NCBI GenBank assembly: GCA_963749155.1
Contig: CAVVLO010000002.1
Span: 960,001-1,024,000 of the forward strand
Reading direction: 5' to 3'
DNA length: 64,000 nt
From: an uncultured Armatimonadia bacterium
GTDB lineage: Bacteria > Armatimonadota > Zipacnadia > CAVVLO01
Shown here in pieces: positions 14,988 to 59,278 of the stretch. Below the pieces are notes generated by a model that saw only the letters and a program-made list of their open reading frames with translations, did not search any database and was not told the DNA's origin. The position numbers and the translations under genes are program-made. Each line of letters opens with the position of its first letter. The first letter of the stretch is position 1.

Positions 14988-15018
14988 CAGCAGCAAGCCC
15001 TTGCCAGCGAGTGAGCGC

Positions 15019-19077: not shown

Positions 19078-19081
19078 CCAG

Positions 19082-19222
19082 CTAACCTCCGAGGAATAAC
19101 GCCAGCTTTTGGGCTAGCGCATAAAGAGTGATGACAAGCGCCCAGCCAGCCAGGAGTAACAGCAAGGGGCCTTGCTCCAGACGCAGTCCCGAGGAGGCGG
19201 GAGGTTCGTGTTTTTGTTTCAC
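19082..19222 (-). CDS. Small single-pass membrane protein (46 aa)
   Basis: MKQKHEPPASSGLRLEQGPLLLLLAGWALVITLYALAQKLALFLGG*. GTG start overlaps the upstream stop (GTGA) and the ORF fills the gap to the GT-C gene. Confidence 0.55.
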   Translation of the reverse strand: MKQKHEPPASSGLRLEQGPLLLLLAGWALVITLYALAQKLALFLGG

Positions 19223-19944: not shown

Positions 19945-19956
19945 CTCGCGGGCCTC

Positions 19957-20508: not shown

Positions 20509-20511
20509 GAA

Positions 20512-22307: not shown

Positions 22308-22314
22308 CTCGGAG

Positions 22315-23546: not shown

Positions 23547-23578
23547 TTGGTTCAGCTCCTGGTGAGAAGATGGGGCCT

Positions 23579-29840: not shown

Positions 29841-29853
29841 CTGGCGTGGCTAC

Positions 29854-30660: not shown

Positions 30661-30697
30661 AAGGGTCGGTCTCCCTTTCAACAAGGCTGAGCCAGAC

Positions 30698-31165
30698 TCA
30701 GCGCTCGACCAGGGCGAAAGACAGGACGCCCTGGGCTACGATTTGGTCGTCGACTTTTGCAACGCAACTTACCTTGCCTGTAATGCCCTTGAGGGCGATT
30801 ATCTCGGCATCGGTAATCAGAGTATCGCCAGGATGCACCTGCTTGCGAAATTTCATCTGCTCGATGCTTCTGAACAGCGCCAGTTTCGAGACGGCATCAT
30901 CAGTCAGATAGAGCAGCACGCCCGCCACCTGGGCCATATGCTCGGTTATAAGAGCCCCAGGCATTATCGGGTTGCCGGGAAAATGCCCATTGAAAAACTC
31001 CTCATTTCGAGTGACGTTTTTCAAGCCCTTGATCCACTTGCCAAGTTCGAAATCGAGAATCCTGTCCACCAGCAGGAAAGGATACCTGTGGGGCAAGATG
31101 CTCTCGATAGCGATAATATCGAGTGGTGGCTCATATTTCGGGTTTGCATCCAGCTCTAAACTCAT
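30698..31165 (-). CDS. fabZ: 3-hydroxyacyl-ACP dehydratase
   Basis: LPHRYPFLLVDRI and FFNGHFPGNPIMPG motifs. Confidence 0.95.
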   Translation of the reverse strand: MSLELDANPKYEPPLDIIAIESILPHRYPFLLVDRILDFELGKWIKGLKNVTRNEEFFNGHFPGNPIMPGALITEHMAQVAGVLLYLTDDAVSKLALFRSIEQMKFRKQVHPGDTLITDAEIIALKGITGKVSCVAKVDDQIVAQGVLSFALVER

Positions 31166-32031
31166 TCTTGTCCACCCATCCCTGTTTGGTTTCGCAAAGC
31201 CAGCGCTGCCTGGGTGTGCAGCGCATGGCCAGACCTGCTTGCCGTGACTCTTGCTTCAACAAAGGCACCGGTAAGGTATAAGTCGCCCACCAGGTCAAGC
31301 AGCTTGTGGGCTGCCACTTCATTAGCCAGACGAGGCTCGTTTACATAGCCTTCCTCGCCAAGGACCAGGACGTTTTCAAGCGAGGCGCCGCGCGCAAGGC
31401 CTGATTCGATTAAGGCTTTCGCTTCGCTTTCAAGCCCGAAGGTTCGGGCGGGCGCGACCTGCTGGCCGAAAGACGCCTCACACGGGCGATAACTGGCCTC
31501 GACAACGCCAAGCCAGGCCAGTGGAGATTCGAAACGATATTCAAAACTGGCTGTAAGGGCAGGCTCGATGTGTATGAAAGCCTCACCTGCGCGCACCTCA
31601 AGAGGCTCGCTCAGGCGAAGCAGCTTGCGCGAAGCTTCCTGTTTCACAAGCCCCGCTCCCTCGATTAACTCGAGGAAGGGCAAGGCGCTTCCATCCATTA
31701 CGGGTATCTCTGTGCCCTGGACACGCACCAGGCAGTTGTCGACGCCAGCGCCCCAGAAGGCCGCCATCAGATGCTCGACCGTCGCAAGACGAGTTTTCCC
31801 AATACCAAGTGTGGTGCCCCGGCGCGTTTCCAATACATACTCGGCAAGAGCCGGTATGCGTTCGGTCCGTCCCTGACCAGGCACCTCGAATATGATCCCT
31901 GTGTCTTCTGGCGCAGGCAGCAACTCCAGTCCGACCAGCTCACCGGTATGCAACCCGATACCTGCCGCCCTGACTGGGCGCGCGAGGGTGCGTTGCGCTT
32001 CCTGCAACCTGGTCTCTGGAGTTCTCATCAC
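31162..32031 (-). CDS. lpxC: UDP-3-O-acyl-GlcNAc deacetylase
   Basis: GIGLHTG, TVEHLMAA, APARTFG and HKLLDLVGDL motifs. Start is GTG 32031 or ATG 32028. Confidence 0.93.
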   Translation of the reverse strand: MMRTPETRLQEAQRTLARPVRAAGIGLHTGELVGLELLPAPEDTGIIFEVPGQGRTERIPALAEYVLETRRGTTLGIGKTRLATVEHLMAAFWGAGVDNCLVRVQGTEIPVMDGSALPFLELIEGAGLVKQEASRKLLRLSEPLEVRAGEAFIHIEPALTASFEYRFESPLAWLGVVEASYRPCEASFGQQVAPARTFGLESEAKALIESGLARGASLENVLVLGEEGYVNEPRLANEVAAHKLLDLVGDLYLTGAFVEARVTASRSGHALHTQAALALRNQTGMGGQE

Positions 32032-32037
32032 CACGGG

Positions 32038-32048
32038 ATTATAGCACA
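32038..32048 (-). promoter_or_regulatory. Extended -10 promoter element ahead of lpxC
   Basis: Minus strand reads TGTGCTATAAT, 6 nt upstream of GTG 32031. Confidence 0.55.
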
Positions 32049-32094
32049 AAGCGACCGGCTTCCCGGCCGCTCTGGCTGGTCTTTCCCTTGGTAG

Positions 32095-42984: not shown

Positions 42985-43015
42985 TTGCGGTCGCCTTCGG
43001 GCGGCCGCAACTCTT
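42985..43015 (+). terminator. GC-rich hairpin, probable terminator
   Basis: TTGCGGTCGCC-TTCG-GGCGGCCGCAA followed by CTCTT (weak tail). Confidence 0.55.
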
Positions 43016-43043
43016 GGCAACTCGTTTTGTCTCAAGTTATAAT
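43014..43043 (+). promoter_or_regulatory. Sigma70-type promoter of porin operon 1
   Basis: TTGGCA-18 nt-TATAAT; the same arrangement precedes operons 2 and 3. Confidence 0.7.
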
Positions 43044-43065
43044 GCGGCAGTTGGGCTAGCCGAAG

Positions 43066-43177
43066 GACGCTGGCAATCCGGTCGAGAAGGAGGTGCCCCC
43101 CGAGGCCACGCAAAAGCGTCACTCAAGTCAACCACTCAAGCTCAAAAAAGCCAAAGAGAGGCAACATGGTAACTCTC
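43066..43177 (+). ncRNA. Putative structured 5' leader RNA, copy 1
   Basis: GACGC/GCGTC closing stem around a conserved GGYAATC-GGYC-GGAGGTG-AGGCCACGC core, then the hairpin GAGAG-GCAACATGGTAA-CTCTC. Confidence 0.55.
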
Positions 43178-43255
43178 AAAGGCCGTCGGGCTTTGCAGGT
43201 TGATGCTGGAGTTTTCCCAACTCGCAGTAAACAACCATATGGGGGTTACACCAAA

Positions 43256-44991
43256 GTGAAAAAACTCGCAATCGCAGTAGTAGCGCTAGCGCTACTCGCG
43301 CTCGTGCTTGCCCCCGCGATGGCCAAGGATATGCCCGATGTTCCGTTCACCCACTGGGCCTATGACGCAGTGGACGAACTCACCGACATCGGCATTCTGC
43401 AGGGCTATCCGGACGGCACCTACAAAGGCCAGAGGACTCTTACCCGCTATGAGTTCGCCGAGGCCACAGTCAAGCTCGTGCATTACCTCGAGAACTACGT
43501 AGACGAAAAGACCGCCGCCCTGGAGGCTGGCGTTGACGCCGCCGAGGCGCGCGCTATCGCCAAGGACGAGGCCGCCAAAGCCGTTGCGGCCATCAAGCTG
43601 CCGACCTTCGACATGACGATGGATCAGGTTCGGGCCGCCGCTGCCGCCGCTGGCGCGCAGGCTGCCAAAGACGCCCTGGCCGGTATGAGCCCTGGCGTTA
43701 CCAAAGCCGAGGTTCAGGCCATGATCGATGGCGCAGTGCGCAACCTCGTGACCAAAGACTACGTTGACAACCTGGCCGCGGAGTTCCGCGCCGATATCCA
43801 GGAGCTTGGCGTAGATGTCGACGATCTGATGTATCGCGTCGACCAGCTCGAAGCCAAGCTTGTTGCCCTCGATGGCCGCGTATACGCCCTCGAGAACAAG
43901 CCTGACAAGGTCACTGGCAACCTCAAGTGGCGCGTCGGCACCGCCGAAGCCGTCAATGGCATGTATGTCGGCAACTGGGAGCGTTTCAGCAACCTGGAAG
44001 TGCGCGTCAACATCGACGGCAAGATCTCCGACAAGGCCCAGGGCCATATCGGTATCTGGCGTCCGGATGCCACCTATGACTGGGACAACCGCGGCACCCA
44101 CATCGACACCGCTTACGTAGATGTCCAGGACGGCCTGTTCAAGGGCGTAGACTGGCGCTTCGGCAAGCAGTACTACAAGACCGGCTGCGGCCTGACCTTC
44201 GACAACAATACCATCCCCGCAGAGGCCATCAAAGCCAACTTCACGCTGGCTGGCATCGACTTCACCGCTCTGCTGGGCTTCATCGACTCCTCGGCCCCAA
44301 GTTGGTTCAACTCGGGCGACGAGGAAGAGATCCAGGTCTACTCGGCTGCTTACGACTTTGGCCGACTTGGCCTGGTGGGCACGCTACTGCAGCGGGCCGA
44401 CTTCTATGGCGACTATGAAGCCGAGCGCTGGGGCATCGCCGCGATGTACGATGGGCTGGATATCCCGTTCTTCGGGCTCCAGGCTGATGTCGCTGGCGAG
44501 TATACGCAGCTCAAGGACTGGGTCGCGGACAACGCCTGGTACCTCGAAGCCAAGATCGCCGGGGCTGGCTATGAGCCTGGCGACCTGATGCTGAAGGCGA
44601 CCTTCTCCGACAACGAGGACATCTGGTACTGGCTGCGCAGTCGGCGTCAACTACAACGGCATGGTTATGTACAACGGCCTTGCCTGGGACTGGCTCCTGG
44701 ACGACAACAGCGTAATCGGCACCTACGGCGGCAAGACCTGGAGCGCCGCTCTCTCCAAGGACCTCGGTGGCATGGATGCGTTGCTGCGCTGGGTACGTTT
44801 CGACGATGGTCAGCCTTTGGATGATAACGGCTATTTCCGGGCCTGGTGATAGTGCCGACCTGTGGCAACTCAGCCTGACCAAGGAGATCGCCAAGGGCGT
44901 AGACGCCAAGCTGACTTATGCTCTGCTCGATGACGATTACCTGGATGACAGGTTCGACTACTTCGCTGGCTCCATCGACGTGAGCTTCTAA
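43256..44991 (+). CDS. SLH-domain outer-membrane beta-barrel protein (OmpM-like), copy A1; two +1 insertions at 44642 and 44848
   Basis: Signal peptide, SLH motif (DVPFTHWAYDAV...GYPDGTYKG..TLTRYEFA), coiled-coil stalk, beta-rich C-domain ending in Phe. Nearly identical to intact copy A3 apart from two extra bases and a few SNPs. Confidence 0.88.
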
Positions 44992-45005
44992 CTGGCAAAA
45001 GCAAC

Positions 45006-45031
45006 TGGGGGCGGGGTTCGCCTCGCCCCCA
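45006..45031 (+). promoter_or_regulatory. Intercistronic UUCG hairpin between A and B genes (also 48951-48976 and 52800-52825)
   Basis: TGGGGGCGRGG-TTCG-CCTCGCCCCCA, 11-bp stem, no U tail. Confidence 0.7.
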
Positions 45032-45052
45032 CTCCCTAAGGGGGATATACTA

Positions 45053-46879
45053 ATGAAGACACTAGCACTGGCAGTGACCATGTTGTTGATGGTTGCTTTG
45101 CTCGTGCCAGCCGTCGCCAAGGATATGCCGGACGTGCCCTTCGGTCACTGGGCCTACGACGCGGTGGACGAACTCACCGATCTGGGCGTAGTCGAAGGTT
45201 ATCCGGATGGCACTTTCAAAGGCGACCGGACCTGGACGCGCTATGAATTCGCGGTAATGCTCACGCGGATGATCGACTTCCTGGAGGACTACCTTGATTC
45301 GAAGGTAGCCGGGATGGATATGGGCATCACCGAGTCGGCGGCTCGCGCCATCGCTCGGGAAGAGGCCCAGAAAGCTGCCGCGGGCGTGCAACTGCCTGAC
45401 GTCGCGGCTTTCATGAACCAGGTTAACAGCACCGCCACCTCGGCTGGAGCAGCAGCGGCTCGCGAAGCGCTTGCGGGCTACAAGCCAGGCATCTCGAAGG
45501 CCGAGGCGCAGGCAATGATCGACGCCGCGGTCAAGAACTTCGTGGACAAGGGCGCCCTCGATGCGATGGCGCAGGAGTTCCGCGGCGAGCTTGCGATGCT
45601 GGGCGCCGACGTGGACGACCTGATGTACAGGGTCGACGCGCTGGAGACCAAGTTCGCGGCCCTCGAAGCGCGGGTAACCGCCCTCGAGAACAAGCCCGAC
45701 AAAGTCACTGGCGTAATCGAGTGGAAAGCTGGCACCAACGAGTTCCCCGAGACTGGCGAGATCAATCCCAATGAGAACCTTGTTGGACTCGGTGCGCCTG
45801 CCCGCGACTATCTACCCGCTGGCCCAGGCTGGAACCGCTTCAGCAATCTCTCGGTCAAGGTAAACATCGACGGTAAAATCAGCGACAAGGCTCAGGGCCA
45901 TATCACTCTGTGGCGTCCCGATGCCACCTACGATTATATGGGCCGGGGCACCCACATCGACACTGCTTACGTGGATGTCCAGGATGGCCTTTTCAAGGGC
46001 GTAGACTGGCGTCTTGGCAAGCAGTATTTCAAGACAGGCTGTGGCCTGGTATTCGACAATGACCTGTTCCCTTCAGAAGCTGCCAAGCTGAGCTTTAATC
46101 TTGGCGGACTAGATCTGACTGGCTTCTTCGGCTGGACCGACTTCAGTCCAATGGAGGAAGCGTCCGAAGAACCGACCTATGTTGGCGAGGCCAAGTATAG
46201 CTTCGGACGACTCGACCTGGACGGTACCTATATGTTCAGGGGCGAAGGCGGCGCCAGGCGCTGGGGCATCGCGGCTGGGTACGAAGGGCTGGACGTGCCC
46301 TTCTTTGGGCTCAAAGCCAATGTCAAGGGCGAATGGGCTTCGATCGTAGATGCAATAGGGGGCGGAGTGCTGCCTCCTGGTATCTCGGACGAGGCTTATT
46401 ATGCCCGCGCAGATATCATGGGCAAGGGTTGGGAACCAGGCGACTGGATGTTTACAACCACCTGGGCCGAGCAGCAGCTTGGTTATCTGGCCCTCCTCAA
46501 CAGCACCCATCCATATAGCCTGGGCGTTCTCTACAATGGCTTGCCCTGGGACTATATGCTCAGCGACAACGTGACAATGGGCCAGCCTGGCATGTTCGCT
46601 TATAGCGCTGGGCTGTCTGGAGAACTGGCTAATATGCCTGTCAGTCTCCGTTGGGCGCGTTGGTCACCAACTGGAGCTTTGCTGGCTGCACTCGGCGCTC
46701 CAGCCGGCGTAGACTTCGACATCGACGTCTACCAGGTGACCCTCGACAAGGAACTGGCAGAAGGAGTTATGGCTCGCCTTACCTGGGCCAACTTCAAGCC
46801 AAGCATCGACTCTCCAGTTCCTATACCCTACGACCTGGAAGCGCAGTACGTTGGTGGTTCCATCAACGTGCTGTTCTAA
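45053..46879 (+). CDS. SLH-domain outer-membrane beta-barrel protein (OmpM-like), copy B1
   Basis: 608 aa: signal peptide, SLH, coiled coil, C-terminal GGSINVLF. Confidence 0.88.
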   Translation: MKTLALAVTMLLMVALLVPAVAKDMPDVPFGHWAYDAVDELTDLGVVEGYPDGTFKGDRTWTRYEFAVMLTRMIDFLEDYLDSKVAGMDMGITESAARAIAREEAQKAAAGVQLPDVAAFMNQVNSTATSAGAAAAREALAGYKPGISKAEAQAMIDAAVKNFVDKGALDAMAQEFRGELAMLGADVDDLMYRVDALETKFAALEARVTALENKPDKVTGVIEWKAGTNEFPETGEINPNENLVGLGAPARDYLPAGPGWNRFSNLSVKVNIDGKISDKAQGHITLWRPDATYDYMGRGTHIDTAYVDVQDGLFKGVDWRLGKQYFKTGCGLVFDNDLFPSEAAKLSFNLGGLDLTGFFGWTDFSPMEEASEEPTYVGEAKYSFGRLDLDGTYMFRGEGGARRWGIAAGYEGLDVPFFGLKANVKGEWASIVDAIGGGVLPPGISDEAYYARADIMGKGWEPGDWMFTTTWAEQQLGYLALLNSTHPYSLGVLYNGLPWDYMLSDNVTMGQPGMFAYSAGLSGELANMPVSLRWARWSPTGALLAALGAPAGVDFDIDVYQVTLDKELAEGVMARLTWANFKPSIDSPVPIPYDLEAQYVGGSINVLF

Positions 46880-46901
46880 GCAACATTCAAACCCGCAACA
46901 G

Positions 46902-46935
46902 AGAGTCCGGGGCTTCGGCTTCGGACTCTTTTTTT
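46902..46935 (+). terminator. Rho-independent terminator of porin operon 1
   Basis: AGAGTCCGGGGC-TTCG-GCTTCGGACTCT followed by a T tract. Confidence 0.85.
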
Positions 46936-46945
46936 GTGATATGGG

Positions 46946-46974
46946 TTGGCAGAAAAGCAATCTCGTATTACAAT
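46946..46974 (+). promoter_or_regulatory. Sigma70-type promoter of porin operon 2
   Basis: TTGGCA-17 nt-TACAAT. Confidence 0.7.
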
Positions 46975-46993
46975 ATTTTACAGAAGTTTTACA

Positions 46994-47116
46994 GAGAGCT
47001 GCGGTAATCGGGCCACCAGGGAGGTGAGCTTCGAGGCCACGCCAAGTTCTCAAATAAGTCACTTCGTGGGCAGTCCGAGAGTAGGACGAGGCAACACGGT
47101 GACTCCTCTACCCTCG
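46994..47116 (+). ncRNA. Putative structured 5' leader RNA, copy 2
   Basis: GAGAGCT/AGTTCTC closing stem around the same core, then the hairpin GAG-GCAACACGGTGA-CTC. Confidence 0.55.
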
Positions 47117-47175
47117 TGACTTCCCTATAACGATTAAGTTCGTCAGGTAATATCCCAAATTAGGGGGGGTCATAA

Positions 47176-48936
47176 GTGAAACCACTTGCAGCTACGGTAG
47201 TAGCGCTAGCGCTACTCGCGCTCGTGCTTGCCCCCGCGATGGCCAAGGATATGCCCGATGTTCCGTTCACCCACTGGGCCTATGACGCAGTGGACGAACT
47301 CACCGACATCGGCATTCTGCAGGGCTATCCGGACGGCACCTACAAAGGCCAGAGGACTCTTACCCGCTATGAGTTCGCCGAGGCCACAGTCAAGCTCGTG
47401 CATTACCTCGAGAACTACGTAGACGAAAAGACCGCCGCCCTGGAGGCTGGCGTTGACGCCGCCGAGGCGCGCGCTATCGCCAAGGACGAGGCCGCCAAAG
47501 CAGTCGCGGCCATCAAGCTGCCGACCTTCGACATGACGATGGATCAGGTTCGGGCCGCCGCTGCCGCCGCTGGCGCGCAGGCTGCCAAAGACGCCCTGGC
47601 CGGTATGAGCCCTGGCGTTACCAAAGCCGAGGTTCAGGCCATGATTGATGGCGCAGTGCGCAACCTCGTGACCAAAGACTACGTTGACAACCTGGCCGCG
47701 GAGTTCCGCGCCGATATCCAGGAGCTTGGCGTTGACGTAGACGATCTGATGTACCGCGTTGACCAGCTCGAAGCCAAACTTGTTGCCCTCGATGGCCGCG
47801 TATACGCCCTCGAGAACAAGCCTGACAAGGTCACTGGCAACCTCAAGTGGCGCGTCGGCACCGCCGAGGCTGCTAATGAGTATTACGATGCCATGTATGG
47901 GTGGATCAACTATCCAGGTAACTGGGAGCGCTTCAGCAACCTGGAAGTGCGCGTCAACATCGATGGCAAGATCTCGGACAAGGCCCAGGGCCATATCGGT
48001 ATCTGGCGTCCAGATGCCACCTATGACTGGGACAACCGTGGCACCCATATCGACACCGCTTACGTGGATGTCCAGGACGGCCTGTTCAAGGGCGTAGACT
48101 GGCGCTTCGGCAAGCAGTATCTGAAGACCGGCTGCGGCCTGACCTTCGACAACAATACCATCCCCGCCGAAGCCATCAAGGCCAACTTCACACTGGCTGG
48201 TATCGACTTCACCGCTCTGCTGGGCTTCATCGATGCCTCCGACCCGAGCTACTTTATGAGTGGCGACGAGGAAGAGATCCAGGTCTACTCGGCTGCTTAC
48301 AGCTTCGGCCGGCTTGGCCTGGTGGGTACGCTGCTCGAGCGCGCTGATTTCTATGGCGACTACGAAGCCGAGCGCTGGGGCATCGCCGCGATGTACGATG
48401 GGCTGGATATCCCGTTCTTCGGACTCCAGGCTGACGTCGCTGGCGAGTATACCCAGCTTGAGGACTGGGTTGCAGACAACGCCTGGTACCTCGAAGCCAA
48501 GATCGCCAAGAAGGGTTACGAGCCTGGCGACCTGATGCTGAAGGCGACCTTCTCCGACAACGAGGACATCTGGTACTGGCTTCGTTCGGCTGTCAACTAC
48601 AATGGCATGGTGCTGTATAACGGCCTTGCCTGGGACTGGATCCTGGACGACAACAGCCTGGTAGGCACCTTCGGCGGCAAGACCTGGAGCGCCGCTCTCT
48701 CCAAGGACCTCGGTGGCGTAGACGCACTGCTGCGCTGGGTGCGTTACACTGACAGCCAACCGCTCGATGACAATGGCAACTTCTGGACCTACGATGACGC
48801 CGACCTGTGGCAACTCAGCCTGACCAAGGAGATCGCCAAAGGTGTAGACGCCAAGCTGACCTATGCCCAACTCAATGACAAAGCCTTCGATGAGAAGTTC
48901 GACTACTTCGCTGGCTCGATCGACGTGAGTTTCTAA
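47176..48936 (+). CDS. SLH-domain outer-membrane beta-barrel protein (OmpM-like), copy A2
   Basis: 586 aa with the same N-terminal stalk as A1/A3 and substituted loop segments; ends AGSIDVSF. Confidence 0.88.
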   Translation: MKPLAATVVALALLALVLAPAMAKDMPDVPFTHWAYDAVDELTDIGILQGYPDGTYKGQRTLTRYEFAEATVKLVHYLENYVDEKTAALEAGVDAAEARAIAKDEAAKAVAAIKLPTFDMTMDQVRAAAAAAGAQAAKDALAGMSPGVTKAEVQAMIDGAVRNLVTKDYVDNLAAEFRADIQELGVDVDDLMYRVDQLEAKLVALDGRVYALENKPDKVTGNLKWRVGTAEAANEYYDAMYGWINYPGNWERFSNLEVRVNIDGKISDKAQGHIGIWRPDATYDWDNRGTHIDTAYVDVQDGLFKGVDWRFGKQYLKTGCGLTFDNNTIPAEAIKANFTLAGIDFTALLGFIDASDPSYFMSGDEEEIQVYSAAYSFGRLGLVGTLLERADFYGDYEAERWGIAAMYDGLDIPFFGLQADVAGEYTQLEDWVADNAWYLEAKIAKKGYEPGDLMLKATFSDNEDIWYWLRSAVNYNGMVLYNGLAWDWILDDNSLVGTFGGKTWSAALSKDLGGVDALLRWVRYTDSQPLDDNGNFWTYDDADLWQLSLTKEIAKGVDAKLTYAQLNDKAFDEKFDYFAGSIDVSF

Positions 48937-48999
48937 CTGGCAAAAGCAACTGGGGGCGAGGTTCGCCTCGCCCCCACTCCCTATAAGGGGGATATACTA

Positions 49000-50734
49000 A
49001 TGAAGACACTAGCCTTGGCAGTGACCCTTCTGTTGATGGTCGCTTTGCTCGTGCCAGCCGTCGCCAAGGATATGCCGGACGTGCCCTTCGGTCACTGGGC
49101 CTACGACGCGGTGGACGAACTCACCGATCTGGGCGTAGTCGAAGGTTATCCGGATGGCACTTTCAAAGGCGACCGGACCTGGACGCGCTATGAATTCGCG
49201 GTAATGCTCACGCGGATGATCGACTTCCTGGAGGACTACCTCGATTCGAAGGTAGCCGGGATGGATATGGGCATCACCGAGTCGGCGGCTCGCGCCATCG
49301 CTCGGGAAGAGGCCCAGAAAGCTGCCGCGGGCGTGCAACTGCCTGACGTCGCGGCTTTCATGAACCAGGTTAACAGCACAGCCACCTCGGCAGGTGCAGC
49401 AGCGGCTCGCGAAGCGCTTGCGGGCTACAAGCCGGGCATCTCGAAGGCCGAGGCGCAGGCAATGATCGACGCCGCGGTCAAGAACTTCGTGGACAAGGGC
49501 GCCCTCGATGCGATGGCGCAGGAGTTCCGCGGCGAGCTTGCGATGCTGGGCGCCGACGTGGACGACCTGATGTACAGGGTCGATGCGCTGGAGACCAAGT
49601 TCGCGGCCCTGGAAGCGCGGGTAACCGCCCTCGAGAACAAGCCCGACAAAGTCACTGGCGTAATCGAGTGGAAAGCTGGCTCTGTCGAGCCACTTGGCTT
49701 TGGGATGTATGGGCCATATGCTCGTAGCTGGGAACGTTTCAGCAACCTCTCGGTTAAGATCAACATCGATGGCAAGATCTCCGACAAGGCCCAGGGCCAT
49801 ATCGGTATCTGGCGTCCGGATGCCACCTATGACTGGGACAACCGCGGCACCCATATCGATACCGCTTACGTAGATGTCCAGGACGGCCTGTTCAAGGGCG
49901 TAGACTGGCGTTTTGGCAAGCAGTATTTCAAGACAGGCTATGGCCTGGTTTTTGATAATGACATACAGCCTTCCGAAGCTGTCAAACTCAACTTCCAACT
50001 GGGCGCACTTGATCTGACCGGTTTCTTCGGTTGGACCGATTGCCCCTATGGCTTTGGCGATGAAGATCCAACTTATGTTGGTGAAGCCAAATACAACATC
50101 GGCAGGCTTACACTGGATGGCACGTATGTCTTCCGGTCTGAAGTTGGCGCCAAGCGTTGGGGCATTGCAGCTGGGTACAAGGGGCTCGATGTGCCGTTCT
50201 TCGGCGCTAAAGCTGACCTCAAAGGCGAGTTCGGCGAGGTAATCAACGGCAACGGCGGAGGAGGAGTACCGTCCTCCATCGACAACGCCTATTTTGCGCG
50301 CGCTGACTTTATGGGCAACGGTTATGAGCCAGGCGACTTCAAACTCGGAGTAAGCTGGTCCGAGCAGCAGCGGGCATACCGTCCGTGGCTATGGAGCGGT
50401 TCGACTTATGACCATTATGTCCATTATGGCAGCTCGGCGATCGGCTCAGCCTGGGACTTCCTGCCTAGGCGAGAATTTCCAGGTTGGCGGACTGCTCTCG
50501 GGTACCCGCTGGACTGGCGAGATCGAGAAGGATCTTGGCAACCTAGGCCTGTTCCTTCGTTACGCGCAAATGAAAACTTGGGGTGCTCCTGAATATAGCA
50601 AGCTTTATCAGCTTGCTCTGGACAAGGAACTAGCCGATGGGGTCAACGCCAAGCTGACCTACGCGCGGATTGACTATGGTATGTTGGACACCGAGACCGA
50701 CTACTTCGGCGGCTCCATCAACGTAGACTTCTAA
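49000..50734 (+). CDS. SLH-domain outer-membrane beta-barrel protein (OmpM-like), copy B2; +1 frameshift at ~50464
   Basis: ORF 49000..50592 joins ORF 50408..50734 after AWDFL; ends GGSINVDF. Confidence 0.85.
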
Positions 50735-50757
50735 CCGGTTAGTTCAAGCGACACAAA

Positions 50758-50790
50758 AGAGCCCGGGGCTTCGGCCCCGGGCTTCTGTTT
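50758..50790 (+). terminator. Rho-independent terminator of porin operon 2
   Basis: AGCCCGGGGC-TTCG-GCCCCGGGCT followed by TCTGTTT. Confidence 0.8.
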
Positions 50791-50805
50791 GGGAGGATAC
50801 TACTG

Positions 50806-50834
50806 TTGGCAGAACGTGATTTTCCAGATACAAT
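50806..50834 (+). promoter_or_regulatory. Sigma70-type promoter of porin operon 3
   Basis: TTGGCA-17 nt-TACAAT. Confidence 0.7.
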
Positions 50835-50857
50835 AACAACAGGTTGGAAAGCAGAGG

Positions 50858-50973
50858 GGCGCTGGTAATCTGGCCAAAAAGGAGGTGTCCCCCAAGGCCA
50901 CGCCGAGGCGTCACTCAAGTCAGCTCAAAGAGAATCTGAAGGAGAACTCGAGAGGCAACTAGGATACTCCCGA
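50858..50973 (+). ncRNA. Putative structured 5' leader RNA, copy 3
   Basis: GGCGC/GCGTC closing stem around the same core, then the hairpin TCGAGAG-GCAACTAGGATA-CTCCCGA. Confidence 0.55.
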
Positions 50974-51051
50974 TCTTCCTCCTTCTTTTCTCCTTGTGAT
51001 GATGCTTGGGTATGCCAACCCGAATGTATACACCAACAAGGGGAAATCAAA

Positions 51052-52785
51052 GTGAAAAAACTCGCAATCGCAGTAGTAGCGCTAGCGCTGCTCGCGCTCG
51101 TACTTGCCCCCGCGATGGCCAAGGATATGCCCGATGTTCCGTTCACCCACTGGGCCTATGACGCAGTGGACGAACTCACCGACATCGGCATTCTGCAGGG
51201 CTATCCGGACGGCACCTACAAAGGCCAGAGGACTCTTACCCGCTATGAGTTCGCCGAGGCCACAGTCAAGCTCGTGCATTACCTCGAGAACTACGTAGAC
51301 GAAAAGACCGCCGCCCTGGAGGCTGGCGTTGACGCCGCCGAGGCGCGCGCTATCGCCAAGGACGAGGCCGCCAAAGCCGTCGCAGCCATCAAGCTGCCGA
51401 CCTTCGACATGACGATGGATCAGGTTCGGGCCGCCGCTGCCGCCGCTGGCGCGCAGGCTGCCAAAGACGCCCTGGCCGGCATGAGCCCTGGCGTTACCAA
51501 AGCCGAGGTTCAGGCCATGATCGATGGCGCAGTGCGCAACCTCGTGACCAAAGACTACGTTGACAACCTGGCCGCGGAGTTCCGCGCCGATATCCAGGAG
51601 CTTGGCGTAGATGTCGACGATCTGATGTATCGCGTCGACCAGCTCGAAGCCAAGCTTGTTGCCCTCGATGGCCGCGTATACGCCCTCGAGAACAAGCCTG
51701 ACAAGGTCACTGGCAACCTCAAGTGGCGCGTCGGCACCGCCGAAGCCGTCAATGGCATGTATGTCGGCAACTGGGAGCGTTTCAGCAACCTGGAAGTGCG
51801 CGTCAACATCGACGGCAAGATCTCCGACAAGGCCCAGGGCCATATCGGTATCTGGCGTCCGGATGCCACCTATGACTGGGACAACCGCGGCACCCACATC
51901 GACACCGCTTACGTAGATGTCCAGGACGGCCTGTTCAAGGGCGTAGACTGGCGCTTCGGCAAGCAGTACTACAAGACCGGCTGCGGCCTGACCTTCGACA
52001 ACAATACCATCCCCGCAGAGGCCATCAAAGCCAACTTCACGCTGGCTGGTATCGACTTCACCGCTCTGCTGGGCTTCATCGACTCCTCGGCCCCAAGTTG
52101 GTTCAACTCGGGCGACGAGGAAGAGATCCAGGTCTACTCGGCTGCTTACGACTTTGGCCGACTTGGCCTGGTGGGCACGCTACTGCAGCGGGCCGACTTC
52201 TATGGCGACTATGAAGCCGAGCGCTGGGGCATCGCCGCGATGTACGATGGGCTGGATATCCCGTTCTTCGGGCTCCAGGCTGATGTCGCTGGCGAGTATA
52301 CGCAGCTCAAGGACTGGGTCGCGGACAACGCCTGGTACCTCGAAGCCAAGATCGCCGGGGCTGGCTATGAGCCTGGCGACCTGATGCTGAAGGCGACCTT
52401 CTCCGACAACGAGGACATCTGGTACTGGCTGCGCAGTGGCGTCAACTACAACGGCATGGTTATGTACAACGGCCTTGCCTGGGACTGGCTCCTGGACGAC
52501 AACAGCGTAATCGGCACCTACGGCGGCAAGACCTGGAGCGCCGCTCTCTCCAAGGACCTCGGTGGCATGGATGCGTTGCTGCGCTGGGTACGTTTCGACG
52601 ATGGTCAGCCTTTGGATGATAACGGCTATTTCCGGGCCTGGTATAGTGCCGACCTGTGGCAACTCAGCCTGACCAAGGAGATCGCCAAGGGCGTAGACGC
52701 CAAGCTGACTTATGCTCTGCTCGATGACGATTACCTGGATGACAGGTTCGACTACTTCGCTGGCTCCATCGACGTGAGCTTCTAA
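51052..52785 (+). CDS. SLH-domain outer-membrane beta-barrel protein (OmpM-like), copy A3
   Basis: 577 aa intact ORF: signal peptide, SLH, coiled coil, terminal Phe. Confidence 0.9.
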   Translation: MKKLAIAVVALALLALVLAPAMAKDMPDVPFTHWAYDAVDELTDIGILQGYPDGTYKGQRTLTRYEFAEATVKLVHYLENYVDEKTAALEAGVDAAEARAIAKDEAAKAVAAIKLPTFDMTMDQVRAAAAAAGAQAAKDALAGMSPGVTKAEVQAMIDGAVRNLVTKDYVDNLAAEFRADIQELGVDVDDLMYRVDQLEAKLVALDGRVYALENKPDKVTGNLKWRVGTAEAVNGMYVGNWERFSNLEVRVNIDGKISDKAQGHIGIWRPDATYDWDNRGTHIDTAYVDVQDGLFKGVDWRFGKQYYKTGCGLTFDNNTIPAEAIKANFTLAGIDFTALLGFIDSSAPSWFNSGDEEEIQVYSAAYDFGRLGLVGTLLQRADFYGDYEAERWGIAAMYDGLDIPFFGLQADVAGEYTQLKDWVADNAWYLEAKIAGAGYEPGDLMLKATFSDNEDIWYWLRSGVNYNGMVMYNGLAWDWLLDDNSVIGTYGGKTWSAALSKDLGGMDALLRWVRFDDGQPLDDNGYFRAWYSADLWQLSLTKEIAKGVDAKLTYALLDDDYLDDRFDYFAGSIDVSF

Positions 52786-52846
52786 CTGGCAAAAGCAACT
52801 GGGGGCGGGGTTCGCCTCGCCCCCACTCCCTAAGGGGGATATACTA

Positions 52847-54578
52847 ATGAAGACACTAGCACTGGCAGTGACCATGTTGTTGATGGTTGCTTTGCTCGTG
52901 CCAGCCGTCGCCAAGGATATGCCAGACGTGCCCTTCGGTCACTGGGCCTACGACGCGGTGGACGAACTCACCGATCTGGGCGTAGTCGAAGGTTATCCGG
53001 ATGGCACTTTCAAAGGCGACCGGACCTGGACGCGCTATGAATTCGCGGTAATGCTCACGCGGATGATCGACTTCCTGGAGGACTACCTCGATTCGAAGGT
53101 AGCCGGGATGGATATGGGCATCACCGAGTCGGCGGCTCGCGCCATCGCTCGGGAAGAGGCCCAGAAAGCTGCCGCGGGCGTGCAACTGCCTGACGTCGCG
53201 GCTTTCATGAACCAGGTTAACAGCACCGCCACCTCGGCTGGAGCAGCAGCGGCTCGCGAAGCGCTTGCGGGCTACAAGCCAGGCATCTCGAAGGCCGAGG
53301 CGCAGGCAATGATCGACGCCGCGGTCAAGAACTTCGTGGACAAGGGCGCCCTCGATGCGATGGCGCAGGAGTTCCGCGGCGAGCTTGCGATGCTGGGCGC
53401 CGACGTGGACGACCTGATGTACAGGGTCGACGCGCTGGAGACCAAGTTCGCGGCCCTCGAAGCGCGGGTAACCGCCCTCGAGAACAAGCCCGACAAAGTC
53501 ACTGGCGTAATCGAGTGGAAAGCTGGTACCGCCAATGATGGCAGCAGCTGGAATCGCTTCAGCAACCTTGACTTGAAGGTAAACATCGATGGCAAAATAA
53601 GTGACAAGGCCCAGGGCCATGTCACCCTGTGGCGTCCGGATGCCACCTACGACTGGGACGAGCGCGGCACTCACATCGACACCGCTTACGTAGACGTCCA
53701 GGATGGCCTGTTCAAGGGCTTCGACTGGCGTTTGGGCAAGCAGTATTACAAGACCGGCTGCGGTCTGACCTTCGATAACGATGTCATGCCCGCCGAAGCT
53801 GTCAAGCTCAACTTCGACCTGCTTGGCGCCGATGCGACCGTGTTCTGGGGTACCAGCGATTACGCCGATAGCTGGTTTGGCTATGACGATGAGATGGTCA
53901 CCCTGCTTTACAACCTCAAGAAGCAGTTCGGCCATCTGACCCTGGATGGCACTTTCGTCGATCGCAACCTGTGGGAAGATGAGCAGCGTTGGGGCATCGC
54001 CGCAATGTATGAGGGGCTGGACGTGCCGTTCTTCGGCCTGAAGGCTGACCTCGAGGGCGAGTATACCCAATATGACAAGCCCTGGACTTCCTACAACTCC
54101 TACTACACTGGAGCCACGTTGAAGGGCAAGAACTATGAGCCGGGCGACTTGAAGCTCAAGCTGACCTTCGCAGACAATCCCTACTATGACGAGTACTGGC
54201 CTTACCAGAACGGCTTCATCACCTATGATGGATTTGTCTGGTACAGCAACCTGGCCTGGGACTTCCTTCTTGTCGGATGCCCCGAACCTGGGCGTGCCCT
54301 ACGGGAAGACCTGGAGCGCTACTCTGACCAAGGATCTGGGCTGCGTGGACGCGCTGCTGCGCTGGCGCAAATATGTACCCGACAATGCGGCCGGGTACAT
54401 CTACCTGGATTCCTGGGGCTACTCTTACCTTTACAACCAGGGCGACCTGTGGCAGCTCAGCCTCACCAAGGAGCTTGCAGAGGGCGTAGACGCCAAGCTG
54501 ACTTATGCTCAGCTCAATGACAACTATTACGATGAGACCTACAAGTACTTTGGTGGCAGCATCAACGTAGGCTTCTAA
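52847..54578 (+). CDS. SLH-domain outer-membrane beta-barrel protein (OmpM-like), copy B3; +1 frameshift at ~54271
   Basis: ORF 52847..54520 joins ORF 54186..54578 after AWDFLL; ends GGSINVGF. Confidence 0.85.
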
Positions 54579-54601
54579 TCAACCAACTGAACCAAACGAC
54601 C

Positions 54602-54632
54602 AAACCCGGGGCTACGGCCCCGGGTTTTTTTT
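54602..54632 (+). terminator. Rho-independent terminator of porin operon 3
   Basis: AAACCCGGGGC-TACG-GCCCCGGGTTT followed by a T tract. Confidence 0.85.
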
Positions 54633-54649: not shown

Positions 54650-55228
54650 TCAGTCTAAGTGAGTCAGCCCGTGGAAATATGTTGTCAGAGTATGTTTCAA
54701 CTCTTCATCATAATCACGTGGGGTATCGGCATCTACTAGCGCCTGGGTATATATGCCACTGATGATGCCAAGCACAGCCAGAGTATCCAGATAAGGCCGC
54801 CTGGAAGCAGTCAGATGCTGCTTCATAAGTGCGACCAAGGAAGCCAGAAGCTCTACCACAACAGGGGGCACAGGTTCGGCGACTGGCGCAAGCTCGCGGA
54901 AGAGCAAGGTAAAGAAAGTGGGACGTTTGCCTATCTGCCGACCCAGTTCCAGGGCGAAAGCCAGCCCGCCATCATCACTGGAAGCTTCCTCAGAAAAGGC
55001 CTCCAGCTCCGCCTGAACCTTGCCAAACTTGCGCCTCAGGCACAGTTCGTAAAGCTGTTCCTTGTTGCCAACATAGTAGTAGAGCATCGCCTTGTTGACG
55101 CCAGCGGTTTCGGCGATCTCCTCCAGGGTGGCCGCGTGGAAGCCTTCGCGAGCGAATACCTGTAGCGCCGCCTTGATTACGGTGTCAACGCGGGCTTCTC
55201 TCTGTTCAATTCGACACTGCTTCATCAA
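54650..55228 (-). CDS. TetR/AcrR family transcriptional regulator
   Basis: AALQVFAREGFHAATLEEIAETAGVNKAMLYYY helix-turn-helix. Confidence 0.92.
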   Translation of the reverse strand: MMKQCRIEQREARVDTVIKAALQVFAREGFHAATLEEIAETAGVNKAMLYYYVGNKEQLYELCLRRKFGKVQAELEAFSEEASSDDGGLAFALELGRQIGKRPTFFTLLFRELAPVAEPVPPVVVELLASLVALMKQHLTASRRPYLDTLAVLGIISGIYTQALVDADTPRDYDEELKHTLTTYFHGLTHLD

Positions 55229-57099
55229 AGGCCAGCTCCTGCAGTCGTAGAAGCTTCGTCCTTGAGAGCGCGCGAGGCAAGCTCTTCAACGTCGATATTG
55301 AGGCTCTGGAGTTTCCACATCCGCGCGAAGACACCCCCCAGGGCAACTAGCTCTCCGGGAGTGCCGGCCTCGACTACCTTCCCTTTGTCCAGCACTACTA
55401 TCTGATCGGCATCGGCGATTGTAGAAAGCCGATGGGCGATTATGACGCTGGTGCGGCCCGTCATAAGGCGCTTCAAGGCATCGTGGACTTCCTTCTCGGC
55501 CTCAGTGTGCAGACTGGCAGTTGCTTCGTCCATCACAAGCAGCTCGGGATTACGCAAGATAGCCCGGGCAATAGCGATTCGCTGGCGCTGGCCACCTGAC
55601 AAACGCACGCCGCGCTCTCCGACGATGGTGTCCATCCCCTCGGGCAGTTCGGTGATAAAGCCAAGCGCCGCTGCGTCTTTACAGGCCTGAACAAGCTCTT
55701 CCTCCGTCGCCTCAGGTTGGGCCAGTAACAGATTTTCGCGGATGCTCATCCCAAAAAGGAAGCTCTCCTGCGGGATGTAAGTCACCCGGTCGCGGACCGA
55801 TTCGAGATCGAGTTCCGTAAACTTGCGGCCGGAGATGGCCAAATCACCCTTCTGCGGATCATAGAATCGGCACAGCAGCTTGGCGATAGTGCTCTTGCCC
55901 GCCCCTGAGGCGCCTACCAGCGCCGTTGTCTTGCCTGTCGGCAGGGCGAAGGAGGCATCCTCCAACACCCACTGCTCGTCTTCGTAGGCGAACCAGACAT
56001 GCCGCAGCTCGACATCGGCAGCCACCGTGGACAGCGAATGTTCGCCGGTGGGCTCGCGCATCTCGGGGGTAGCATCAATTATCTCGAATATCCGGTCTAC
56101 GCCCGCCAGTGTCTGCCGGTATTGGGTATAAAGGCGCGTCATCCAGCCGATTGGGCCGACTATCATCTGGACGTACATCGTGAAGGCAATTACCGAGCCT
56201 GCGGAGATATAGCCCTTGATGGCGCGGTAACCGCCAATACCGAGTACCAGCAGGTTGGGCAGCCCCATAACGAACTGCATAAGGCCGCCGAACAGCGCGC
56301 CCACCTTCACAGTCTCCATCGTGCGGTCGACAACCTCGCGGTTGTCCTTGTCGAAGCGGTCCTGCGCATACGCGGCAAGGTTGTAGCTCTTCACGACAGC
56401 CATACCCGAGAGCGTTTCCTGGACGAAGCTGGTGAGCACGGAGAGCTGCTCCTGCACCATCCGGCTGACCTCCTGCAGTCTGGGACCGAAGATGCGACCC
56501 AACCCAAGCACGGGCGGTATGACGAAGAGCAGCACGACGGTCATCGTGGGATCTTTATAAAGGATGTATCCCAGCGCGTAGAGCAGTCGTATGGGTTGCT
56601 GAATCAGTCCCATCAGCTGCCCACCAAGCAGGCCCTGCACCAGGCCTGTGTCGTTAGCCAGTCGCGAGAGCATATCGCCCGACATCGTCTTCTCATAATA
56701 ACGCATCGACAGGCCCAGACCGTGGTCATAAAGCTCCTTACGCAGATCGGCGGTTGCATGCTGGCCGAGGTAGCCGAGGAGTATGCCCTGGAAATAGCCG
56801 TTGATGGCACCTGCTATCGCAAGCACGAAAAGGCCAGCGACGACGCTCATCAGATGATGGACGTCTCCTTGCTTGCCCATCCCATCGAGGATACGGCCGA
56901 CGACGTCAGGCATGGCCAACTCGGCGGCAAGGCCCATCAACATAAAGGCGGCACCGGTGGCCGCATAAGCCCAGTAGGGTTTGACGTAACGCATCAACCG
57001 CTTGATGGGCTGCTTGGTGACGAACTTGTGCTCTTCGACGGGTCCACCGAGTCCGCGTCGGGCGTAGAAGCGAGCACCATGCGAGTGCATCATGTGCAT
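55225..57099 (-). CDS. ABC exporter, fused permease/ATP-binding protein
   Basis: Six-TM domain plus GASGAGKST, LSGGQRQR and DEATASL motifs. Confidence 0.92.
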   Translation of the reverse strand: MHMMHSHGARFYARRGLGGPVEEHKFVTKQPIKRLMRYVKPYWAYAATGAAFMLMGLAAELAMPDVVGRILDGMGKQGDVHHLMSVVAGLFVLAIAGAINGYFQGILLGYLGQHATADLRKELYDHGLGLSMRYYEKTMSGDMLSRLANDTGLVQGLLGGQLMGLIQQPIRLLYALGYILYKDPTMTVVLLFVIPPVLGLGRIFGPRLQEVSRMVQEQLSVLTSFVQETLSGMAVVKSYNLAAYAQDRFDKDNREVVDRTMETVKVGALFGGLMQFVMGLPNLLVLGIGGYRAIKGYISAGSVIAFTMYVQMIVGPIGWMTRLYTQYRQTLAGVDRIFEIIDATPEMREPTGEHSLSTVAADVELRHVWFAYEDEQWVLEDASFALPTGKTTALVGASGAGKSTIAKLLCRFYDPQKGDLAISGRKFTELDLESVRDRVTYIPQESFLFGMSIRENLLLAQPEATEEELVQACKDAAALGFITELPEGMDTIVGERGVRLSGGQRQRIAIARAILRNPELLVMDEATASLHTEAEKEVHDALKRLMTGRTSVIIAHRLSTIADADQIVVLDKGKVVEAGTPGELVALGGVFARMWKLQSLNIDVEELASRALKDEASTTAGAGL

Positions 57100-57190: not shown

Positions 57191-59278
57191 TCAATCGCCA
57201 AGCAGGTCGCGCCGTAAAGCCTTAACTCGGCCAGCAAAATAGGCTGGGGCGTCGGCTTCCAAAGGGAAACAGAACAGCCAGGGGCCGGGAGTTGAATAAC
57301 TCTGCCCTGGTTCGAGGAGTGCATTGGGAGGATGGCGCAGTTCAAGCAAAACCGGCTGCCCTGCACCGCCAGAGGACCAGTATTCAAAGTCGCGCGGGTC
57401 GAGGAAACTGACCCCGAGGCCGACGCCCGCCTGGCGGTCAAAAGCCCATATACCAGGGCGGTAGAAGGGGATCCACATATGGCGGAAGGGACCAGGCTCA
57501 TCGCCTGCTGAATCTCCCCCCACTTTGCTTTCAAGCCGCCACTGGGTTTCTGCCAGGCGCCAGGGGCGAGAGGAAACCGAAGTCACCTCTAGGCAGTCTT
57601 ACAGCACACCAGCCTTCCGGGCCGGTCGGAACCACGACCTCGGCGCGCGCGGAGAAAGCAAGGTCACCCTCGGCGATAAGCTCGAGTTCCAGTCGGGTAA
57701 TCCGGTCAGTGTGGGTAGCCGTCAGGATTTTGGTAGAAGAAGCGGTCGTCCAGCGATATCCCCCCGCGTGCTGGAGCAGTCGCAGCTCTAGTGCGCCAAG
57801 CGAGCTATTGCCGAGGGCAAAACCTGGCCTGCCCAGCTCATCCAGTCTGGTAGTAAGGAGGCCAGTCGTCAATTGCTCTGGCAGGGGACAGGCAACTCCG
57901 ACCTCGGTCATCCAGTCTGGCAGTTTTTTGGGGCTTGCGGTCGCCGGTGGAGTAGCCGCCAGATGGAGCCGGTCTACTTCCTGATTTGCCTTGGCAAGGG
58001 CCTCTGTTAAGTCAGGATACGGTTCGTCACGCTCATTCACCAGGCCGTAGTTGGTGTTTTCAGGATGGTGAGCCGCAAGCCCCAGGGCGGGCTCGTCTAC
58101 CCACATAAAGTAGCTGCTGCCAACAACATAAGGCAGACTTGCCAGCGCCTTGAGATAAGTAGCAGAAGCCGCAGCCCGCTGGGCCTGGGTCTCCACGCGC
58201 AGGCCGGCGCCTGTTGTGCAGGGCAGGCCGCTGTCCAGCGCGGGGAAGCTCCACTCGCTAATCAACAGAGGTTTACCTGAGAGCCTGTGCCACTGTTCCA
58301 GTTGGGTAATCTGCCAGTCAGGTAGCTCACCTTCAGGCTCAAAACGGGGATAGAGATTTACACTTATCACATCACAATATTTGCCGGCGATCTCCCAGAC
58401 AGGCTCTGGGGCATCTCCAGCAAAACGCACCCCGAGCAGCAGGTGATTTGGGTCATACCGCTTAACTGCCGCGGTGACCACACTGAAATAGCGCTCCGCA
58501 ACCAGGCGCAGCCAGTCATCGCACAAAGCAACCGCCGCATCAGTCATCGGCGGAGAGGGCTGGGCGCTTTGGGCAATCTGCTCCCAGGAGAAGCCAGGCG
58601 CTCCAAAATCTGCACAAAAGGCTTCACTAGAGGGGTAGCGCGATTTTAGAAAATCCAGCCAGGCCTGTTTGGCAGGGTCGTCAACCGGTTTGCGCCAGGC
58701 CTCTTCAAACAACCCCCAGGGCCGTCCAATGCGTCCCCACCAGGCCAGTTCGTTGTCCAGATAATAACCAATCAGGCCAGGCTCACTCGCGCGCTGGGCG
58801 CAGTAGGCAGCGGCTCGCTCCACGCAGCTGGCTTCCCAGTCGGGATGAAAGACATTAGGGAAAGCCGCGTAGACAGTAGGTGAGACAGTTGGGAGGCCCT
58901 CTTTGGAGGCGAACCAGTAACCAAGAGGGAGCAGCTCAATACTCGGCAGGCCAGCCTCGCCTTTGAGTTCGGCATTAGAGAGTTCGCCGACCGCATCGAA
59001 GCCCCAGGCCGCCAGACGTTCTCTGGTCACCCTGGCCCAGGCTTCTGGGGACCGCCATACTTCGCCTCGACCCATCGTTCATAGGGTGAATAACCTAGCC
59101 GTTCGCAGAAATGACCTGAATAGCGAACCTGACTCACGGCCGAGAGGAAGCTTGCTTCTCCCGAGGGAGCTACCAACCACCAGATGCCAGCGCGCTGCTC
59201 CAGGCCATAAAAGCCTGGGGCTGCCCAGGCTAGCGACGACAGAAGCGTAATTAGCAATATCAGGCCAGTTCGTATCAC
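57191..59278 (-). CDS. Secreted agarase-like (GH50-related, clan GH-A) glycoside hydrolase; frameshifts at ~59052 and ~57590
   Basis: Signal peptide and WWLVAPSG in ORF 59027..59278; GYYLDNEL, YDPNHLLLGVRF, LISEWSFPA and ENTNYGLV in ORF 57531..59075; C-terminal part in ORF 57191..57586. Confidence 0.72.

Follow-up and report, generated by a model that had tools for sequence, protein, structure and literature searches.

Near-invariant stalks, apparently exchanged barrels and a leader hairpin recurring in other phyla in an amplified OmpM family of an Armatimonadota genome

We analysed a stretch of 64,000 nt from an uncultured Armatimonadia bacterium (GCA_963749155.1, contig CAVVLO010000002.1, positions 960,001 to 1,024,000, forward strand), hereafter the window, whose positions are used throughout. 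On its plus strand, at 43014..54632, lies an array of genes for outer-membrane proteins of the OmpM type, each with an SLH domain, a stalk and a predicted barrel. The array consists of three tandem head-to-tail units of ~3.9 kb in one orientation, and in every unit a sigma-70-like promoter and a leader of ~200 nt precede gene A, which a G+C hairpin separates from gene B, and a terminator-like hairpin closes the unit. This layout had been proposed in an initial annotation, and mapping of sites, hairpins and genes bears it out. The sigma-70-like sites at 43014, 46946 and 50806, with 11, 10 and 10 of 12 matches, are the top three of 8 sites (shuffle mean 4.7), and the intercistronic hairpins are near-identical among units.

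In unit 1 the promoter (TTGGCA-18-TATAAT, 43014..43043) precedes two leader elements. Module M1 (43072..43107), located by a search with the pattern GGYAAUC.GGYC...GGAGGUG...GAGRCC, holds a Shine-Dalgarno (SD)-like run without a matching start codon in the frame of the gene, and hairpin M2 (43148..43185), AGG[A/C]AAC-N2/3-GGNNACU in a covarying stem, was identified by covariation and with our model R1. Then follow ompM A1 (43256..44991), which apart from two extra bases relative to A3 (at 44642 and 44848) encodes the A3 protein, the hairpin between A1 and B1 (45006..45031), the intact B1 of 608 aa (45053..46879) and a terminator-like hairpin with T run (46900..46931). Unit 2 comprises a promoter (TTGGCA-17-TACAAT, 46946..46974), M1 (47003..47038), M2 (47078..47115), the intact A2 of 586 aa (47176..48936), a hairpin (48951..48976) and B2 (49000..50734), which has one extra base near 50464 and an A-type tract in strands 3-5; the terminator-like hairpin after B2 (50760..50783) is without a proper T run on the plus strand, where it is weak at best. 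Unit 3 has the same promoter sequence as unit 2 (50806..50834), M1 (50864..50899), M2 (50942..50979), the intact A3 of 577 aa (51052..52785), a hairpin (52800..52825), B3 with one extra base near 54272 (52847..54578) and a terminator-like hairpin with T run (54602..54627). As in unit 2, M1 was found by pattern search and M2 with model R1.

The initial annotation spoke of six paralogues, which holds for this locus; genome-wide search raised the total to 10 ompM genes, eight in four A-B operons and two orphans. The fourth unit (contig C3:61900-65567) has its own leader, a weaker match to the -35 box and one extra base in its B gene (B4), and its leader was also found in runs X4, X9, X11 and X17. 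Both orphans, at contig C2:762853-764535 and C2:1377100-1378866, have A-type stalks and no B partner. One of them, O2, stands directly before a 16S rRNA gene, and its M2 is no more than degenerate; the other, O1, has M2 and lacks M1.

As assembled, only B1, A2 and A3 are open frames in the window. A1 is broken twice and B2, B3 and B4 once each, in all five cases by a single-base insertion. A codon-model scan of the whole genome, which is crude and counts in gene overlaps and shadow frames, called internal frameshifts on all 7 contigs, 547 of insertion type and 186 of deletion type, an insertion bias at about 1.3 calls per 10 kb; the 5 insertions in about 14 kb exceed the expected number of roughly 2. 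Of the 4 RNA-library runs compared, the 3 with a contig at the extra base of B2 all lack that base, the extra base of B3 is absent from an independent contig of run X1, and the breaks in A1 and B4 are bridged by none of the independent contigs compared. All five frameshifts are probably long-read errors. Given independent contigs without the extra base and the genome-wide insertion bias, we rejected B2 and B3 as real pseudogenes serving as silent donors. That all copies end in Phe, as first annotated, is true when A1, B2 and B3 are read through their breaks but not of the frames as assembled.

The assignment to OmpM proved sound. Pfam SLH (PF00395) reached 32.6-35.6 bits against a gathering cut-off of 20.8 in A2, A3 and B1, that is in 3/3 intact copies, and a 50-sequence profile matched Veillonella parvula OmpM1 with E=2.8e-47 over SLH and barrel, as well as SlpA 7ZGX. 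A3 carries a signal peptide (residues 1-23), the SLH domain (31-68), a stalk predicted by AlphaFold to be helical in the monomer (to ~218) and a barrel of 18 predicted strands (219-577). In the model of mature A3 the predicted local distance difference test score (pLDDT) was 77.6, low in the stalk and high, mostly >85, in the barrel. Foldseek returned MOMP, OmpM1 and AlgE as top matches, and look-alikes of the barrel in an atlas fall into porin clusters, which we take as a lead only. The window also holds the genes expected of a host with a lipopolysaccharide (LPS) outer membrane (lpxC/A/B/K, waaA, kds, lptA/B/C/FG). Judged by sequence and model, the array proteins belong to OmpM, and by analogy with OmpM1 they would bind peptidoglycan or the cell wall and act as porins.

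The available text of a survey defines OmpM by SLH plus barrel and reports it in Armatimonadetes (10.1101/2021.05.31.446380); OmpM1 is described, in the accessible part of its report, as a trimeric 16-strand porin with coiled-coil stalk that serves nutrients as a channel too, its constriction being formed by loops 3 and 7 (PMC10628300). With the OmpM proteins of diderm Terrabacteria (V. parvula OmpM1, 8BYS/8BYM; Deinococcus/Thermus SlpA, 7ZGX) the array proteins share the signal peptide, one SLH domain, a coiled-coil stalk and a C-terminal barrel ending in Phe, besides multiple copies and an LPS/Lpt cluster nearby. In contrast to OmpM1, the stalk is about 100 residues longer and Ala-rich and the barrel has 18 predicted strands rather than 16; unlike OmpM1 and SlpA, the array has two stalk classes in fixed two-gene operons and stalk-barrel shuffling. 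High copy numbers are reported for Negativicutes only in the part of the survey at hand, which suggests recombination and calls the reason for many OmpM copies in some lineages unknown (10.1101/2021.05.31.446380), whereas 10 copies are found here in an Armatimonadota genome.

The copies differ in a sharply uneven manner along their length. The initial annotation had described the first ~225 codons as almost invariant within A and within B, and indeed residues 24-228 are identical in protein (205/205) among the four A copies and likewise among the four B copies, whereas A and B are 59% identical. The invariance extends to silent sites, with a divergence of 0.02-0.07 among A and 0.007-0.055 among B stalks. 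The orphans serve as control: their A-type stalks are 83-87% identical in protein yet the proportion of differing silent sites (pS) is 0.56-0.65, and therefore selection on protein alone does not preserve silent sites. Divergence sets in at residue 229, with the very sequences of the first barrel loop quoted by the initial annotation, but it does not run on unbroken, as strands 2-5 form a conserved block of 81-100% identity across all eight operon genes. Hypervariable barrels, as first claimed, are found in the B copies (residues 318-577: 42-57% identical, silent sites saturated at pS 0.63-0.76) but not in the A copies, which are 88-100% alike; A1 and A3 are the same protein apart from the breaks, with 6 silent differences.

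We mapped this variation on the A3 model, with strand limits set by hand from its DSSP string. Over 13 sequences the predicted extracellular loops have a mean identity of 38%, the strands 65% and the predicted periplasmic turns, which are gap-free, 77%. Loops L1, 4, 5, 6, 8 and 9 (21-31%) carry the indels, L2 and L3 are at 73-75% and L7 is at 44%. The structure prediction proposed at the outset thus yielded an 18-strand barrel with the variable segments mostly in predicted outward-facing loops, but in the B copies whole strands 6-9 and 11-17 differ as well (31-58%). Strands 1-5 are 67-100% alike in comparisons of B with B and of A with B, most later strands 31-61%. In classical porins strands 1-5 are part of the trimer interface, and by this analogy their likeness would still allow mixed trimers to form. 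The variable loops of A pairs are highly divergent at silent and at replacement sites alike, which speaks against a simple arms race and points to patches that were imported or retained for a long time. The description of the locus thus stood as to layout, stalk invariance and start of divergence, and needed correction on frames, A barrels, the conserved block and copy number.

Stalks and barrels have different histories. In a 17-row tree, which left out A1 (equal to A3) and the fragments P0074 and P0075, the stalks fall into an A and a B group with 100/100 support. For the barrels a clade of the B-stalked rows is rejected (approximately unbiased test, p-AU 2.9e-7), because B3 has its barrel neighbours, again at 100/100, in the A-stalked P0007 and P0073 of other data sets, to which it is 81-85% identical in the barrel and 58% in the stalk. 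Tracts of 83-94 and 50 nt in B2 are identical in DNA to A genes, the barrels being otherwise 54-55% alike. In P0013 from another data set a loop 1 of B4 type sits on a B1 barrel, and loose contig ends of run X17 show a B2-type gene end followed by the 3' flank of B3 and an A2-type barrel ending in a B3-like loop. Among the A stalks all three incompatible 2:2 site patterns occur. Sequence comparison indicates that barrels have been exchanged between stalk types and that conversion tracts are shared among copies. Alleles also differ between samples: three proteins from other samples (P0003, P0004, P0006) stand behind a translated unit-1 leader, with stalks 95-99% identical to that of A3 and barrels only 69-86% identical to those of A1/A3, while NusG, L1 and L7/L12 of the same clusters are 95-100% and the barrels of the orphans 89-96% alike. 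Both stalk types occur in the more distant relatives P0009 and P0010. Our literature search found nothing on conversion-mosaic outer-membrane paralogues.

The four unit leaders have M1 and M2 in common and differ in sequence outside them. The M1 pattern occurs exactly 4 times in the genome, before the A gene of each unit. As a cross-phylum element M1 was rejected: an SD-like run lies within 100 nt upstream in only 21/83 locus rows and is optional. In several phyla a minority of leaders have such a run (GAAAGGAGGUG) at a distance of 60-100 nt upstream of M2. It may be a ribosome-based mRNA stabiliser, an idea that stems from cry3A.

M2 has the form A-G-G-[A/C]-A-A-C-N2/3-G-G-N-N-A-C-U, closed by a stem, and precedes ompM in 12/14 class loci. 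Its conserved core of 16-17 nt is a single hairpin about 45-175 nt before the start codon, with loop bases invariant across phyla. In 22 sequences stem covariation was 0.382, compared with 0.11-0.13 after shuffling, the best of 7 registers. One stem pair is intact as G-C, A-U or C-G in 74/74 held-out matches, a count weakened by the fact that these matches were chosen by the model and their alignment fitted to it. All five sites that model R1 finds in this genome, one in each of the four units and one at orphan O1, were training sequences. The model matches 57/79 genomes of the class, about 17 of which supplied training sequences, with 27/29 retrieved loci before an SLH gene, and 57/151 genomes of the phylum, with 16/21. 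In groups outside training it matches 88/101 Deinococcota, 75/101 Negativicutes and 18/23 genomes of a Synergistota family, and among the best-scoring loci an SLH gene follows in 30/30, 25/30 and 24/29 for Deinococcota, Negativicutes and Synergistota, respectively. The five Synergistota loci without an SLH gene have <120 nt of contig left; the five in Negativicutes precede Phe-ending porin-like open reading frames (ORFs). At the same cut-off the controls gave 2/81 Bacilli and 3/81 Pseudomonadota, about chance level for E=0.05. An exact 18-base pattern was found at no fewer than 120 loci of a genome collection, 67 of the matches listed lying before an SLH gene; among the matches listed, this applies to 39/45 in Negativicutes, 11/12 in Deinococcota, 3/4 in Synergistota and 0/14 in Pseudomonadota. 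Besides Synergistota and Negativicutes, M2 occurs in Armatimonadota, Deinococcota and Abditibacteriota. In other Armatimonadota it was also seen before genes for small secreted proteins (~240-260 aa) that resemble barrels and lack SLH, one of them with a weak match to YjbH, and in one Halanaerobiales-titled and one Bacillota-titled genome before tandem SLH-less porin-like genes, two with Porin_4 above cut-off. Pfam search of 12 SLH-less ORFs downstream of M2 gave Porin_4 above cut-off in 2, weak barrel-type matches in 3 and none in 7.

We favour an RNA over a DNA site because of the sense orientation, the place downstream of the -10 box, the spacer of 2 or 3 bases and the covariation, and on these sequence features M2 is likely a regulatory RNA. 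Rfam 15 gave no family match at the leader in the window, at 9 class loci or at 18 cross-phylum loci. An 'SLH riboswitch candidate' is described in the accessible text of PMC6429828, where its 80 examples come from Synergistaceae, Negativicutes and Clostridia; 60% of these lie before SLH genes, which the paper reads as genes for S-layer proteins, and the rest before unannotated genes. M2 likewise stands upstream of SLH genes in Synergistaceae and Negativicutes, and from gene context and description we consider it likely that M2 is the core of that candidate; the supplementary text files available for it contain neither GGAAAC nor GGACAC. M2 differs from the published description, as far as it is available, in occurring also in Armatimonadota, Deinococcota and Abditibacteriota, and the genes behind it are OmpM/SlpA and SLH-less porin-like genes rather than genes for S-layer proteins. 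Judging by the listing, PMC6429828 alone among the papers found with 'SLH motif' and 'riboswitch' concerns an RNA, and a literature search outside subscription journals found no tie of such an RNA to ompM, Deinococcota or Armatimonadota.

These observations can be read in more than one way, beginning with the hairpin itself. A riboswitch that senses a metabolite such as a cyclic dinucleotide would agree with the invariant loop bases and with the name chosen in the available text of PMC6429828. We consider it improbable for a core this short and confined to one hairpin at such a distance from the start codon, with no conserved terminator or partner sequestering the ribosome-binding site seen and no Rfam riboswitch match. 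For so small a motif a protein-binding site would be the likeliest role, by analogy with the Thermus slpA leader. That leader is reported to be bound by SlpA itself and to control slpA translation, which we take as a lead only. As to the array, the initial annotation had proposed alternatively expressed operons, and a phase-variable or antigenic switch with one operon on at a time, combined with obligatory A/B hetero-trimers, would be in keeping with the strict A-then-B order in 4/4 units, with the persistence of both stalk types in P0009 and P0010 and with four leaders whose differences outside M1 and M2 permit separate control. The constant 5' part, variable exposed 3' part and patchwork conversion tracts are also those of recombination-diversified surface families such as Campylobacter fetus sap, Neisseria opa, Anaplasma msp2 and Treponema tprK. 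In contrast to these families, neither a host, nor a single expression site, nor silent promoterless cassettes or an inversion or invertible promoter was seen with the array: all four units have a promoter-like site and an intact leader and none is inverted, no recombinase was found among the 38 window proteins scanned, and the RNA-library runs X9 and X11 each contain contigs specific to three or more units. Both orphans, moreover, have an A stalk without B partner. Alternative expression of the operons is thus unsupported, and we regard a switch as quite improbable. Still less credible, and in our view very improbable, is that array and mosaics are an assembly artefact from mixed strains. The long-read assembly is rich in errors and 5.87% contaminated, A1 nearly equals A3 and the array is spanned by no contig among those compared, but junctions unique to the array are found again in other samples (from the upstream gene to leader 1 in X2; end of B1 to leader 2, and terminator to leader 3, in X4 and X7; B3 to tetR in X1, X4 and X7), contig C3 carries the only tRNA-Asn of the genome, and stalk/barrel chimeras are present in other data sets (P0007, P0073, P0013). 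All 6 substitutions between A1 and A3 are bases also present in A2 or A4 and not random errors, which fits A1 as a real, converted copy.

The account that we find rather probable is that of an amplified OmpM family with conversion-locked stalks, swapped barrels and a leader hairpin shared across phyla. Gene conversion would likely homogenise the stalks in the periplasm and the first strands of the barrel, whereas barrel variants of older origin and patches of loop sequence would be swapped between copies; the cell likely makes several anchors at once, with a common inner scaffold and a differing outer face, and the hairpin, which ompM/slpA genes in other phyla have as well, is likely the binding site of a protein setting the output of mRNA, any function of M2 being something we infer. 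In the same sense we infer that the units are co-expressed in one cell, that mixed A/B trimers form and that phage or predator pressure is behind the barrel diversity. Several results weigh against this account. No dN/dS above 1 was found in the variable loops and the ratio of replacement to silent differences (pN/pS) in A pairs is 0.3-0.5, so that selection for diversity is not demonstrated. A1 and A3, being one protein, add dosage and not diversity, and the RNA-library contigs attest presence at population level only, with DNA carry-over possible. Paralogue pairs in 9 class relatives are not homogenised in this way, four-fold stalk sites differing by 19-73%, in short-read assemblies that would break near-identical copies. 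The single-copy orphan O1 is itself barrel-biased between samples (barrel 89-90%, stalk 97-98%), and the other-sample proteins may stem from strains at any distance from this genome. Amplification for dosage of the main envelope protein, with passive concerted evolution and barrels that are specialised channels and not phage-driven, would accommodate A1 equalling A3, pN/pS below 1 everywhere, B barrels that differ through whole strands and the long loop L7, and the constricted nutrient channel in the available account of OmpM1 (PMC10628300). We nevertheless hold it to be unlikely, as barrel types are tied to neither locus nor stalk but move between stalks and positions, and three different barrels stand elsewhere behind the unit-1 leader in a background of nearly identical NusG, L1 and L7/L12.

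Within the amplification account, the pN/pS of 0.3-0.5 and the whole-strand differences in B would trace the diversity to old lineages of barrels that recombination has reshuffled. For the stalk, homogenised down to silent sites, 'hypervariable loops on a homogenised scaffold' was thus right, and for the rest it was overstated; of the initial interpretation as a whole OmpM identity, homogenised stalks, loop variation and sample alleles survive, and alternative operon expression is unsupported. A bolder version, which we hold to be possible but less likely than not, makes M2 an ancestral cis-regulator of the Terrabacterial outer-membrane tether in at least 4 phyla, one that the monoderm Bacilli and the Pseudomonadota lack; by way of M2, OmpM not yet assembled, or else a conserved factor that binds RNA, would match porin synthesis to outer-membrane assembly, with conversion-locked stalks and interface strands building mixed A/B trimers whose interchangeable outer faces would be a standing phage defence.

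OmpM, which in diderm Terrabacteria is the main tether of the outer membrane, has a central place in the debate on the origin of Gram-positive envelopes. The protein family is known; the arrangement in two stalk classes, four operons and shuffled barrels is new. The locus offers direct sequence evidence for one answer to the question of many copies, an inner scaffold locked by conversion with exchanged barrels. The cross-phylum hairpin is the more general result, and probably extends the range of an orphan motif already published and reinterprets it: the riboswitch candidate gains gene context and a much wider range, and a 17-nt core in ompM/slpA mRNAs of several phyla, including tractable genera (Thermus/Deinococcus group, Veillonella), makes control of OmpM testable.

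Upstream of the array by 11-30 kb, on the minus strand at 13866-32049, lies an LPS/Lpt cluster with lpxC, lpxA, lpxB, an msbA-like ATP-binding cassette (ABC) gene, waaA, lpxK, a lipid A acyltransferase gene, kdsB/A/D/C, lptC, lptA, lptB and lptF/G, then DUF3084; this outer-membrane biogenesis cluster resembles the Negativicutes cluster that houses ompM copies. Direct scans for loci of relatives confirmed 0/30 candidates in a metagenome collection and 0/25 in a genome collection, and no genome of the same family or order was among those retrieved by search. SLH-barrel homologues were present in 30/30 class genomes examined. In two genomes of one genus the leader is followed by two unlike ompM genes. 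The OmpM proteins inspected from other families of the class have a collagen-like Gly-X-Y stalk between SLH and coiled coil, at the place where the lineage of the window has its Ala-rich helical segment. Other split genes of the window (10453-11863, 26940-28551, 57191-59278) are likely errors too. Genes for a TetR regulator and an ABC exporter (54650-57099, minus strand) converge on the end of the array, a junction also present in runs X1, X4 and X7.

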